Positions 1 to 26,280 of a stretch of DNA of 28,353 bases are shown piece after piece (the stretch's first letter is position 1; each line of letters opens with the position of its first letter). Origin of the DNA: a virus (taxonomy: Duplodnaviria > Heunggongvirae > Uroviricota > Caudoviricetes); the IMG/VR virus record IMGVR_UViG_648276669_000001. One strand, 5' to 3'. Under the pieces are notes generated by a model that did not search any database, was not told the DNA's origin, and saw only the letters and a program-made list of their open reading frames with translations. Both the position numbers and the translations under genes were made by a program.

Positions 1-299
1 CAAAGTAACCCGGGGCCGATTGCCATTTTGGTATGCGGCCAAAGTTGTTTAATCGCGTGCCCTAACAGGTGCGCACAGGAGTGACGAATGATCTCCAGAC
101 CTTCTTCGTCTTTGGCGGTAATGATCGACAGTTGTGCGTCGTTTTCAATCAGATCGCAAGCATCAACCAGTTCACCATTAACGCGCCCTGCAATACAGGC
201 TTTCGCCAGACCTGGACCAATGTCCAGCGCAACATCCATGGGGCTTACAGCGTGGTCGTAATGGCGTTGGCTGCCATCAGGAAGAGTTATAACAGGCAT
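1..299 (-). CDS. thrS: Threonyl-tRNA synthetase, N-terminal part (gene continues beyond window start)
   Basis: Minus-strand translation from ATG at 299 reads [96 protein letters not shown], recognised from memory as the ThrRS N-terminal domain; AAGGA RBS about 9 nt upstream. The last few codons at the window edge differ from what I recall for E. coli. Confidence 0.85.
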
Positions 300-470
300 T
301 TTATATCCTTATTTGCAGTGGTGACCCACACGAAAGATCACATACAAAGAGAAAACTTGTTTATTTACAGTTGATTACGATACCATCTAGCCAACAATCG
401 CTAAATTGGTACACAATCTGGTACACAGATGAAAAACTGACACAGCAAGTTTTTCATCCATTAAAATCAT
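300..470 (-). promoter_or_regulatory. Probable thrS 5' leader/operator region (translational autoregulation site in E. coli)
   Basis: Position immediately upstream of the thrS start; E. coli thrS is known to have a roughly 160 nt structured leader bound by ThrRS. Sequence not matched base by base from memory. Confidence 0.35.
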
Positions 471-545
471 GGTAACACCAAAAAAGTAGTGATTGCACCA
501 TTCTATTTGACAGTGTCCAAAATTGCCTTACTTCGATGAGGCATG

Positions 546-595
546 CCCCCCCATCTGGTATGTTTTAGTTGATATTGTGATTATACTGCCCCCCC
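546..595. repeat. Two homopolymeric C7 tracts (546-552 and 589-595) flanking a TATACT -10-like hexamer (582-587), upstream of the acetyltransferase ORF
   Basis: Seen directly: gcatgCCCCCCCatctgg and tatactgCCCCCCCaatcat. Confidence 0.9.
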
Positions 596-647
596 AATCA
601 TCCGTGTTGCATTACCTCGCCAGATAATGTAAATTTGAAATTTTCAT

Positions 648-1382
648 TTGCATTTTTTACTTATTGATAATATGAAAATTAGAAAAGTTGTTTTAACAAA
701 AGCAGAGAAGTATTCTGATGAAATGGGTAATGAGATCCAGTACGAAGGTAGTTGTGACGTCAAACTAATTCAGTTTAGAGGATCTAATAATAAACTTATC
801 ATTCATAAAGATGCATCATTAAAATATTTTGAGATATATTTTGACTGCAACAATGGGTATTTTGAAATTGGCCCATGCCATATCGCAAACAAAGGTATAC
901 AAGCCCATATAAGAGTGGGTGAGAATTCCTCCATAAAAATAGGCTCTGATTTCACTTGCACTGGTAAAGGTATGATTTCTGCTGTAGAAAACTCAAGCAT
1001 AATTATTGGCGATGACTGCATGTTTTCAAGTGGAAATGAAGTTAAAACTGATGACTCCCACCCTATTTTTAGTGTAGTAACAGGTGAACGTATAAATATG
1101 CCAAAATCTATTTATATTGGAAGTCATGTCTGGGTTGGCCGCCGAGCGGCAATACTTGGTGGTGCAGAAATCGAAAGTGGTAGTGTTATTGGCTATGCAG
1201 CTGTTGTTAAAGGACACGTCCCAAATAACTCTATTGCAGCAGGAGTTCCAGCAAGAGTAATAAAAAAAGACATTGCCTGGGAAAGACCTCATCTCTCCAT
1301 ACATAAACCTTATGTAAAGCCTAATAAGGACTCCATAAAAACCACAAGTGAATATTGGAACCTAACAAAAGAAAAACAATAA
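648..1382 (+). CDS. Hexapeptide-repeat (left-handed beta-helix) acyl/acetyltransferase, AT-rich cargo gene; alternative start at ATG 672
   Basis: Translation shows repeated [LIV]-G-x-x-x-x hexapeptide motifs (IGSHVWVGRRAAILGGAEIESGSVIGYAAVVKGHVPNNSIAAGVPARVI) typical of LacA/NeuO/WbbJ-type O-acetyltransferases; base composition markedly AT-rich relative to the phage structural genes. Confidence 0.8.
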   Translation: MHFLLIDNMKIRKVVLTKAEKYSDEMGNEIQYEGSCDVKLIQFRGSNNKLIIHKDASLKYFEIYFDCNNGYFEIGPCHIANKGIQAHIRVGENSSIKIGSDFTCTGKGMISAVENSSIIIGDDCMFSSGNEVKTDDSHPIFSVVTGERINMPKSIYIGSHVWVGRRAAILGGAEIESGSVIGYAAVVKGHVPNNSIAAGVPARVIKKDIAWERPHLSIHKPYVKPNKDSIKTTSEYWNLTKEKQ

Positions 1383-1419
1383 AAACACACCATATATTGA
1401 ACGACAAGTAAATCACATG

Positions 1420-1452
1420 TCACTCCTAGAATGCGATATCTTTAAGGAGTGA
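1420..1452. terminator. Inverted repeat (tcactcct / aggagtga, 8 bp stem, 17 nt loop) between convergent acetyltransferase and tailspike genes; possible bidirectional terminator
   Basis: Seen in sequence; flanking T-runs are weak. Confidence 0.3.
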
Positions 1453-1537
1453 CATTTATCTATAACAAATTACTAAAACACCCAAAAAACATAGACTTCA
1501 ATTGGTAATATTGAGACTTAAGGTGTCAGTAAAATAG

Positions 1538-4279
1538 TTAATTTGCAAGCTTATTTTCCAGTTCTTCAATCCTCTTTATAATATTTTTCTGACGTATACC
1601 TAATGCAGCAATCATTAGATACTGTAATTCATCATTTCTGAATGCATAGCGTTCTCCTGCTTCATGCGTAATAGTTATAGCCTCACGAACAAGGTTACCT
1701 TCATCATCATAAACAGCTGGATCTGTATCTGTATATGCATCCCATCTGTCATAGCAGATCGCTCCGTATTTAAATGGATCAAGTCCATTCTCTCTGAATA
1801 TTTCCATTGCCCGTTGCACCGTAAGTCCGGCATGAAGTCTGGCATCAGCTCCCTTATTTTTTACACTATCAAGCCATTGATAAAAACCAATTTCATCAAC
1901 AAGAGCTAACCCAACCGCCTGCTCTTTATCGGAAAGAGTTCTGACTTCCGTTTTCTCTGTTGCATCAGATGTATTTATAGTTGCAGTCCCTGCGTAGACC
2001 TGAGAAAAGCGGTTAACGGACCTTCCAAGTGATACCTGGTTATCAGTTGTTGGCCTTAATGTCGTCGTCGCCCATGTCGATGTAGTATCTTTAGTCGCAG
2101 AAAATACTGTTACATTCCCCTGCTTAAGTCTGACGACACCTCCATCTGTAGAGGCAAGTATCAACTCACCAGCCGCAGATGGACAATCAGCAGCATGGAT
2201 ATCAATATAAGCACCACCCGCAGTATTCCCATCTTTAGAACGGAACTGCATACCTCGAAAGTTTGAGTCGAATACTGCTTTCGTACTTACCCATGAATTA
2301 TTGTCATGTCCGTAATCTGTATCAAACAGGTTAAGGTTATTTCCATAATTCAACTCGAGGGATTTGGTATACTCTCCAATGGCTTCGTCAAATATCGCAA
2401 TAGTAAATGAACCGTGCTCACGGTTAAAGGCGATATCAGTTCCAGCATAATATTGATGCGCGGTTCCGGTATACGGATCGGATTCTGCACCATGCACTGG
2501 ATGGTTGCCAAGAATATCAGACAGGTTTGCTATTCCAAACAGATGCTTATTTCTGCGAGTATAATCACCTGATTTATATGTTGCGCCTGAATCCCATTCA
2601 CCACTTGTCGCTGCAAGCGATGTTTTTAACCAATAAGACCTGTTTGTCGGAAGATTTCCCTTGTTATCACCAGTAACAATACTTACCCAATTTTTACCAC
2701 GATGGCTTACAACATCCCCTGCGCTTTTCCATACATCCATAGCACCACAGACAAGTTCATCACCTCTTATTGCCAGCCCTTCAGGCTCAAAGCTAACCGG
2801 AACTCCGATTTTAGAGTCAGAACCATTTAACTGAGTCTCTGTATAAAGTGATGCGGCAAGTGATACAGGAAATGAACGTATTAGCGTACCACCCATATCA
2901 TAAATCTGTACTGTCCTTACGCATCTTGCAGGAACGCCACCCCAAATTGTGTAAATATATCTGCTATCTGATGTAATACCCTGAAGTGTTGCACCATACT
3001 GACCTTTACCACGGACAAGTGGAACAGGACCATTAATCGGTCTAACTTTCATTGGGTTAGAAGAAGATTCCACTTCTTTGCGATCATATACGTATAAAAA
3101 GCGGCCAGTCCCAGCGTTTGATGTCGCAATTAATATGACATATCGCCCATCATTAGATACACAAATACTTGCCCGCTGCGCAAGGTTAATCAGATTATTA
3201 TCACCCGGCTCACCAAATACTCGGTAATGAGTTATATCTTCAGCAGATGTTGATGCCCCTTTCCATTTTGTCTTTGAATACCCCTTCCCTCCTAGAGAGG
3301 AACCAGTCTCAGCAATTGTTGTTGTAAACAGATATAGTTCACCGTTCTCTATTGTGGCAGAAAGATCTGAACCGTGACCAAGAGGCAATGGCTCTGTAAA
3401 TGTCACAACATAAAGAGTTGAACCATCGCTTGTATAGTGCCACTCACTGATCCTTGTGAGGGTGTCCGTTCCCCAGTTAGAACCTCCAACCTGTTGAGTG
3501 ATAAAAACCTTCTCAATACCTTCATGCCTTACACAAGCTATTCCCTGCAATGCATTTTGTGCATTCGCATATATAGTTGGCGCATTGATATCATCACCAA
3601 AATTCAGGGTCGCAAGTTTTCTTTGTCCAATGGAGAAACTTTGCATCGGCGGATTAACAGAAATGCGAACACCATTACTGATTAGAACACCATCACCGGA
3701 GAAGCGTGAAATATCTATTTTCGATGCATCAACTATAAACTCACCAGAAGGCACATGAACCAAACCACTATTTCCTGCGCTAGATGCGGCGTCAAGAAAA
3801 GCCTGTGTTGAATCTCTATTCGCAGAGTCATCCGCCCCCCACCCGCGAACGTCTTTATCATCCCGCCATCGTGCAATCTGTAATTCAGGGTATTTTTTAG
3901 CACCATCAGGATCTTCTAATTGCTGCCGTAACTGATCCGGGTCATACTTCAGCACATTCGGAAAATAGAACTGCTGCGTACCATAAGCATCGTACACAGC
4001 CATAGAGTGTCCTTTCACAGTAACGAATTTGGCAATCTGTCCGTTATATACAGGATATCCAGCAGCATTGATAACGATTGGTTGCGAAACAGGAACGTGA
4101 GAACCTTCTTCATTCTCTACATAAACCTGAATCTGGTTTTCAGGATTTACAGGGTCAGTGTCAATTTTACCGATATAAATTTTGCCATTAGCTACGGCTT
4201 TAAAAGAACGAGCCATAGTGAAGAGTTGCGAAGGCATCCCAATTACAACATTTGGAGTTATATCAGGCATATTAGTCAT
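1538..4279 (-). CDS. Tailspike protein: P22 gp9-type N-terminal head-binding domain fused to a non-P22 receptor-binding/enzymatic domain and a C-terminal intramolecular-chaperone-like domain
   Basis: Residues [62 protein letters not shown]...[31 protein letters not shown] match the P22 tailspike head-binding domain from memory. The rest is unrelated to the P22 endorhamnosidase; the C-terminus ([36 protein letters not shown]...) resembles the autoproteolytic chaperone domain of endosialidase/tail-fibre proteins. Start set at the internal ATG (4279) because the 48-codon upstream extension is AT-rich and has no counterpart in P22 gp9. Confidence 0.85.
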
Positions 4280-25774: not shown

Positions 25775-26114
25775 TGTGATTTTCCTTTTCGTCACATTTG
25801 CATTTGCAACATTCCATATGGTATGGGAATGAGCTATCCAGTTCGGTAAACCATTCCCTGCATTCAGGGCAATACAAAACCTCCCATGGAACTCCGTATT
25901 CCGTTATCCATTCGAGGACCTGCTTTGTCATTGGAATTGGCGGTATTGCTGAAACATCGTAATTTTTTATGGATAATTCTTTCAAAGCCATGTCGTAACG
26001 ATGCTGAACTGTCGAAAGGTGTCGATTTGTTATGACTAGCTGGCGTCTTAACTGGTAATTGGCTTCGATTAAATCGTTAATCCTTTTTCCTGGATGGGAA
26101 AGTGTTTTCATCAT
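25767..26114 (-). CDS. Hypothetical Cys-rich nin-region protein (115 aa)
   Basis: GAGGA RBS 5-6 nt before ATG; C-terminal CPEC...HMECCKCKC suggests metal binding. Confidence 0.55.
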   Translation of the reverse strand: MMKTLSHPGKRINDLIEANYQLRRQLVITNRHLSTVQHRYDMALKELSIKNYDVSAIPPIPMTKQVLEWITEYGVPWEVLYCPECREWFTELDSSFPYHMECCKCKCDEKENHNG

Positions 26115-26280
26115 CTTCTTCCTCGTACATTGAGCTATTCGGATCGCTCATCAGTTCTGCGCAGCAATCGGAGCACACGTGAACTTCCAGCACATGCAGC
26201 TTCTGACCGCAGTTAGCGCACGTTAAAGCCCGCTCGACGCTTTCTTTCTGGTATTGAAGAGATTGGGATGGACTAAGCAT
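26077..26280 (-). CDS. Small zinc-ribbon protein (NinF-like position), 67 aa from the internal ATG
   Basis: CANCGQKLH...CSDCC motif; internal ATG lies 5 nt before the stop of the upstream gene (ATGCTTAG). The ORF-track start at 26337 would overlap that gene by 65 nt. Confidence 0.5.
   Translation of the reverse strand: MLSPSQSLQYQKESVERALTCANCGQKLHVLEVHVCSDCCAELMSDPNSSMYEEEDDENTFPSRKKD

Follow-up and report, generated by a model that had tools for sequence, protein, structure and literature searches.

Length-variable poly-C tracts at the inner edge of an attachment module, upstream of a NeuO-like acetyltransferase gene in a P22-like Escherichia coli prophage of the thrS leader

Do two short poly-C runs upstream of a phage-borne acetyltransferase gene switch its expression, or do they mark something else? 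The question arises from a stretch of viral DNA of 28,353 bp, the whole of which is called the window here. Two runs of seven cytosines, 36 bp apart, surround a TATACT hexamer (582-587). The initial annotation had read them as possible phase-variable promoter tracts or, alternatively, as a mark of the prophage-host junction (att core). The sequence confirmed both runs and the hexamer. The distance of 60-100 bp to the acetyltransferase start fits the TTG start at 648 of a mechanically called open reading frame; counted from the RefSeq start, the ATG at 672, the tracts are located 77-126 nt upstream. Homopolymer variation upstream of surface genes is of a well-known kind; here, the host and the vehicle are unusual and the function is putative. 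If the tracts tune or switch the acetyltransferase, the prophage would give E. coli a heritable and adjustable change of its surface polysaccharide. Serotyping, the recognition of receptors by phages and immune recognition would all be affected. Homopolymer promoter variation would, in addition, be extended to a mismatch-repair-proficient enteric bacterium, where it is thought to be rare. If the tracts are inert, the value lies in a corrected map, with the att core in the thrS leader and a phage that supplies the promoter of an essential gene, and with the poly-C runs as markers of the seam of cargo exchange between thrS-integrating phages.

The features of the locus are collected in Table 1. 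The two tracts are the sole C7 or G7 runs on either strand of the window. Their number alone is not unusual: at least two C7 or G7 runs occurred in 36 of 100 shuffled windows. The expected probability of two such runs within 60 bp was about 0.001-0.002 in a first-order Markov model of the window. The surroundings of both tracts are a stretch with 37% G+C. The tracts share the context TGCCCCCCCA(A)TC in the same orientation and are thus direct repeats, 43 bp apart. The AT-rich block between them holds TTGATA (569-574) and TATACT on the plus strand and a perfect TATAAT on the minus strand (585 to 580), which overlaps the TATACT. Because the minus-strand hexamer is perfect, the -10-like element is at least equally good in the leftward direction.

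Table 1. Coordinates of the features at the left end of the window; allele counts refer to 17 public assemblies.
Feature	Position	Strand	Description
Host thrS 5' end	13..299	-	Start codon 297-299; RefSeq annotation of identical loci
att core, 23 bp	328..350	.	ACACGAAAGATCACATACAAAGA; located in the thrS leader (-29 to -51 relative to the thrS start codon)
Phage-borne att arm	351..~585	.	Diverged copy of the remaining thrS leader and thrS promoter region
TGGTACACA repeats	407-415, 419-427	.	Putative integrase arm-type sites; pair recurs beside int at the far end
Poly-C tract 1	546..552	+	C7; alleles C7 14, C8 0, C6 2, C5 1 (C5 suspect)
AT-rich block between the tracts, 36 bp	553..588	.	G+C 28%
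Poly-C tract 2	589..595	+	C7; alleles C7 10, C8 3, C6 3, C5 1 (C5 suspect)
Best sigma-70-like candidate promoter	607..635	+	TTGCAT (607-612), 17-bp spacer, TAAATT (630-635); PWM scan; predicted start near 642
Hexapeptide-repeat O-acetyltransferase, 236 aa, NeuO/OatWY family	672..1382	+	WP_001313877.1; RefSeq; Pfam Hexapep
Strong hairpin	1417..1455	.	Perfect inverted repeat of 11 bp (ATGTCACTCCT / AGGAGTGACAT), located where the acetyltransferase and tailspike genes converge
P22-type tailspike	1538..4270	-	Head-binding domain, endosialidase-type stalk, S74 chaperone; Pfam, RefSeq

Other kinds of elements were sought in this region. Folding of 540-602 as a single strand yielded, for either strand, nothing more stable than shuffled sequences and no significant hairpin. 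An Rfam search of 200-1600 had no relevant match, and Tandem Repeats Finder detected no tandem repeats in 300-1600. In exact-pattern scans, the inter-tract sequence had one match in metagenomes and none in viral contigs or in one-genome-per-species contigs; a 14-mer of the thrS leader was not specific enough for such a scan, with 120 matches that were mostly due to chance. A small open reading frame or leader peptide over the tracts (523-627, or from ATG 543) was considered and dropped: it has no ribosome-binding site, and the tract alleles shift its frame.

The attachment site was placed by alignment with the empty site of K-12 and with the far prophage end. In the complete genome of MS 16-3 (L005), this sequence forms one terminus of a P22-like prophage of about 40 kb, whose integrase is encoded at the opposite terminus. 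Exact copies of the 23-bp core border this prophage on both sides, 39,991 bp apart, whereas K-12 has a single copy. The window to the right of position 350 is phage DNA. It contains a pair of TGGTACACA repeats; such pairs occur on both sides of the reconstructed attP and are absent or degenerate in K-12. These paired repeats are probably integrase arm-type binding sites. The tracts are located well past them, 218 and 261 bp inside the prophage, and the far prophage end has no C7 or G7 run. Since the duplicated core is at 328-350 and the far end lacks such runs, the tracts are not the att core. In favour of a prophage-host junction, the homology to an apparently prophage-free thrS upstream region stops near 585, next to tract 2. 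The sequence used for this comparison, however, belongs to a prophage itself. Strains 2452 and A26 were rejected as prophage-free references, as another prophage occupies the same core; K-12 is the true empty site. The reading as att core is thereby refuted. A junction of a different kind does coincide with tract 2, that between a conserved att module and a cargo gene.

This junction became visible in the prophage of strain 2452 (L140), a defective lambdoid prophage of 18.6 kb with the same core at both ends and a similarly placed integrase gene. The 2452-type prophage was found in 71 and the window type in five of 5,426 complete genomes. In all 71 genomes, the homology to the window stops at 585, just before tract 2, and the cargo beyond is a KAP-family P-loop NTPase in place of the acetyltransferase. 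The NTPase is a possible defence gene. As the homology ends and the cargo differs beyond, tract 2 marks the seam at which a common integration module meets a cargo cassette that can be exchanged. In place of the two C runs, the 2452-type module has CGTCTAAC and CGCTG. Positions 561-580 are kept between both prophages, save a one-base indel; TATACT falls outside this conserved part of the inter-tract sequence. The whole att arm (351-585) is 82% identical to the copy in the prophage of strain 2452 and 64% identical to the native sequence of K-12 (L139). The original K-12-type copy of leader and promoter has been displaced to the far prophage end and is 99% identical to K-12.

The cassette on the other side of the seam has a G+C content of 36% versus 47% for the window. 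The hairpin downstream of the acetyltransferase gene has a DNA fold energy of -10.6 kcal/mol (z = -5.55), and none of 200 shuffled sequences was as stable. Although a simple scan for terminators passed over it, this hairpin probably serves as a bidirectional terminator at the end of the cargo cassette. Judged from its sequence, with swapped cargo, deviant G+C, hairpin and a predicted promoter, the acetyltransferase cassette looks like a moron.

The relation of the acetyltransferase to NeuO, which had been noted early, is well supported. The enzyme shares 38.5% identity with neuO of CUS-3 (tblastn), and its best matches among solved structures are NeuO (3jqy, E 2.7e-32) and the meningococcal OatWY (2wlc, E 5e-25). 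Within the P22-like prophage, the gene is next to that of the tailspike, in the slot for lysogenic conversion. The receptor-binding centre of the tailspike (about residues 120-700) had no sequence match to solved structures; only the N- and C-terminal modules match. The polysaccharide recognised by the tailspike is presumably the substrate of the acetyltransferase. Heptanucleotide (poly-psi) repeats are absent from the 5' coding region, where the N-terminus is unique sequence. Without these repeats of NeuO, any phase variation of the acetyltransferase would need another device.

The nearest phage-borne homologues are 64% (L145-147) and 52% (L149-152) identical and also adjoin tail spikes with an S74 chaperone. 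They have no long homopolymers upstream, which shows that the tracts are not characteristic of the promoters of this enzyme family. Public assemblies contain four different and independent inactivating mutations of the gene (L011-L014): a stop by G732T, a stop by C817A, a deletion of G831 and a deletion of C872. These show that loss of function occurs by ordinary mutation. L014 has in addition a T671C exchange just before the start codon and C6 in tract 2.

The comparison of tract lengths across isolates, suggested together with the initial annotation, was made with 17 public assemblies. The sample comprised five complete genomes, loci retrieved by exact matches to the acetyltransferase and tailspike proteins or to truncated variants of these, and one metagenome contig. 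In the protein index, WP_001313877.1 is listed in 717 blocks. The source scaffold was present three times (window, L009 and L144) and was counted once; it may be the same strain as MS 16-3. Both tracts vary in length: tract 2 occurs as C6, C7 and C8, and tract 1 as C6 and C7, besides a suspect C5 (Table 1). The state 7/7 was found in 10 of the 17 assemblies, the modal length is seven and the maximum eight. Five control runs in the same 2.4 kb (A6, T6, A7, A6 and T6) were invariant in all assemblies but L141. The variation of the C lengths next to five invariant runs indicates that the tracts are genuine hot spots of indels, with slippage as the likely cause. In eight otherwise identical copies, the length of tract 2 was the sole difference across about 2.1 kb of phage DNA. 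C8 was present on two host thrS haplotypes, both of which also hold C7 isolates; this suggests that C8 arose repeatedly or that a phage with C8 has spread. Two sequences are C6/C6, one from GMF065 and one from an ENA metagenome scaffold; they belong to a sub-lineage with about 1% divergence that also lacks G588.

Sequencing or assembly artefacts on tracts that are really invariant C7/C7, and inert, are a very unlikely source of these differences. Some length calls could be assembly errors. L141 (C5/C5) certainly looks error-prone, and its C5 calls are suspect, since it also under-calls the A7 control run at 1262-1268. The platform is unspecified for most assemblies, and GMF065 and several others may be based on long reads only. 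Against errors as the general cause, C8 came from three assemblies of separate projects without an indel at the five control homopolymers, and C6/C6 came with the loss of G588 in two sequences, again without a control indel.

The pace of the variation appears to be low. Loci of high-frequency slippage typically have tracts of 8-9 or more G/C, and the present tracts, with a maximum of eight, have a mode of seven, which is short for such a locus. E. coli is mismatch-repair proficient, so slippage at C7 should be rare. The predominance of 7/7 points to slow drift rather than rapid switching.

Whether a length change could influence transcription depends on the position of the promoter. A consensus promoter scan of 500-672 found no sigma-70-like site, and none that uses TATACT; the candidate at 607-635 was below its threshold. 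The simple terminator scan had no match in this stretch either. A position weight matrix, which is rough and was built from approximate hexamer frequencies, so that its scores are approximate, gave this candidate 11.1 bits, the 99.97th percentile of all window positions. The TATACT candidate scored 6.7 bits with ATGTTT as the sole -35 partner. The best candidate is thus located downstream of both tracts. With the predicted start near 642, both tracts would precede the core promoter. Tract 2 would span about -47 to -53 and tract 1 about -90 to -96, and their distances from the predicted -35 element would be about 12 and 55 bp. In neither the consensus scan nor the rough matrix did a recognisable sigma-70 candidate have a tract between its -35 and -10 hexamers. 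If TATACT were used, GCCCCCCC followed by A596 would form a G+C-rich discriminator of 8 bp, with a geometry like that of rrnB P1. Tract length would then alter the length of the discriminator, which is possible but unsupported. A by-eye reading of the intergenic sequence found no acceptable match to sigma-54, CRP or IHF sites.

Several known systems offer a comparison. The gtrABC operon of P22 for O-antigen glucosylation is subject to epigenetic phase variation by Dam and OxyR through GATC methylation. It occupies the same slot, next to att and past the tailspike, and there, too, a prophage varies the receptor polysaccharide. The mechanism differs: by eye, no GATC was seen in about 500-671, and one was noted in the att core (335-338). 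As this stretch showed no GATC by eye, a switch of the Dam/OxyR type looked unlikely.

The neuO gene of CUS-3 in E. coli K1 is close in gene content and arrangement. A hexapeptide O-acetyltransferase of the NeuO family is located between tailspike and att in a P22-like prophage, and the tailspike has an endosialidase-type stalk and a chaperone. CUS-3 is integrated at argW and has coding repeats, whereas the prophage studied here is in the thrS leader and has upstream homopolymers without tandem repeats. The remark that NeuO varies by a different repeat type proved correct: neuO switches via heptanucleotide (poly-psi) repeats inside the coding region (PMC9659370).

By analogy, the closest precedent for the tracts themselves is probably the fimX promoter of Bordetella pertussis. 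The C-stretches of fim2, fim3 and fimX are likewise C runs upstream of genes for surface structures. The fimX alleles C7 and C8 are polymorphic between strains and not rapidly switching, and the C8 transcript level is 3.8-fold below that of C7 (PMC1891110). In Bordetella, the tract is located between the BvgA activator site and the -10 element, and its effect was measured there. The present locus differs by two tracts, a candidate promoter that is predicted only and a mismatch-repair-proficient E. coli host. In the sabA promoter of Helicobacter pylori, a homopolymer outside the -35/-10 spacer grades expression via the presentation of upstream DNA to RNA polymerase (PMC4081817). Tract 2 would have this geometry if the promoter at 607-635 is real. 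The sabA tract is a long T run directly beside the -35 element in an organism without mismatch repair, whereas the C runs here are short and more distant from the predicted -35.

The reading with about an even chance of being correct sees the tracts as slippage-prone homopolymers at the seam of module and cargo. Their length would drift within the population and may, at most, tune transcription. The C7 runs are located at the inner edge of an attachment module that replaces the thrS promoter and leader, and tract 2 is the point where the module ends and the cargo cassette with its predicted promoter, gene and probable terminator begins. Replication slippage would shift the tracts by one base, occasionally two, between lineages. 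This would be a slow microevolution of the population and not a fast reversible switch. If 607-635 is a real promoter, the length changes may at most tune transcription by an altered helical phasing or quality of the upstream DNA, an effect that would resemble the C7/C8 difference of fimX. One finding stands against slow slippage at a seam as the full account. A pair of C7 runs with the same orientation and near-identical contexts has the low chance expectation given above, and this non-random pairing hints at selection or a shared origin, which drift leaves open. Also, surface-modifying phage enzymes in this slot, such as those of neuO and P22 gtr, are often phase-variable, which raises the prior for a designed switch.

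Such a switch would be a selected, reversible slipped-strand device, or rheostat, for the NeuO-like acetyltransferase with one or both tracts, and a lysogen population would be a mixture of acetylation levels. Tract 2 could act as the discriminator and start-site region of a TATACT promoter, with GCCCCCCC and A596, or both tracts could set the phasing of upstream DNA relative to the promoter at 607-635. The tract-specific C6/C7/C8 polymorphism, the non-random pairing and a NeuO-like gene in the conversion slot without the coding repeats of NeuO speak for it, as do the precedents of fimX, where short C tracts alter transcription, and of sabA, where a T tract beside the -35 element acts as a rheostat. 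A selected switch is nevertheless unlikely: TATACT is without an acceptable -35 partner and outside the block that is conserved with the related prophage, the prevailing state is 7/7, slippage of C7 should be rare in a mismatch-repair-proficient host, the 64% and 52% identical homologues do without upstream homopolymers, and inactivation in the field proceeds through ordinary mutations. Of the original idea of phase-variable promoter tracts, the length polymorphism and the NeuO-like gene stand; the location in a promoter spacer is not supported by the promoter scans, and the modal length of seven and the tract-free homologues weigh against it. In its most specific form, the paired tracts would be a selected two-tract rheostat, and lysogens of the P22-like phage in the thrS leader would vary heritably in the O-acetylation of their capsule or O-antigen. 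This is quite unlikely. If true, no earlier contingency locus of the promoter-homopolymer type would have been described in E. coli, and the phage would have arrived independently at a counterpart to the coding heptad repeats of neuO. It is highly improbable that the tracts act through the opposite strand, through a DNA structure or as binding sites. Read leftward, they would be G7 runs 50-100 bp upstream of a phage-supplied promoter that would serve thrS when the phage is integrated and point towards int when it is circular. As a binding site, they would be direct repeats (TGGGGGGGCA) spaced by four helical turns; as a structure, a two-tract G-quadruplex or i-motif (GGG-G-GGG, 36 nt, GGG-G-GGG) would modulate divergent transcription. 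The shared flank of the direct repeats, the perfect leftward TATAAT between them and the position of int downstream of the region in the circular phage, as deduced from the direction of int, are consistent with such roles. However, no protein is known for such a site, the length drift of the runs argues against a precise one, and significant Watson-Crick structure was not found. In the 71 genomes with the related module, G/C runs are missing from these positions, yet that module presumably supports thrS expression.

The integration site has consequences for the host gene. The essential, autoregulated thrS runs in lysogens on control DNA that is supplied by the phage and only 64% identical to that of K-12. 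Transcription of the int gene (L005 6609-7817) runs away from the core at the far end. Once the phage is circular, int would therefore be located downstream of a leftward thrS-like promoter in the other att arm (440-520 of the window). Integration would cut int off from this promoter and hand the promoter to thrS. The window itself begins with 12 bases that follow a run of N in scaffold GL884168.1 (GCA_000176595.2) and differ from thrS in all other assemblies. As these bases are not thrS, the apparent thrS fragment of 99 amino acids in this scaffold is an assembly artefact.

A literature search for E. coli phages that integrate at thrS returned a single paper, on Salmonella wzy (PMC12074656). 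In Salmonella Typhimurium, wzy is located immediately upstream of thrS, and att-like direct repeats that overlap the thrS promoter region mediate excision (PMC12074656). The integration hot spot and the surface-polysaccharide type of cargo are the same as here. The wzy island differs as a 2.6-kb remnant without phage genes, and homopolymer tracts were not reported there. The work on wzy only partly anticipated a phage that integrates into the thrS operator region, brings along the promoter for an essential gene and has its att module in common with a differently loaded phage (PMC12074656).

A DNA search of the phage collection had one match, the siphovirus Salmonella phage vB_SosS_Oslo. Its positions 26060-26208 are a 77% identical copy of window positions 360-508, without the tract region. 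With this copy of the att arm, the thrS leader appears to be an attachment site for several unrelated temperate phages across genera. The use of the thrS leader by several phages agrees with the Salmonella wzy island at the same place (PMC12074656).
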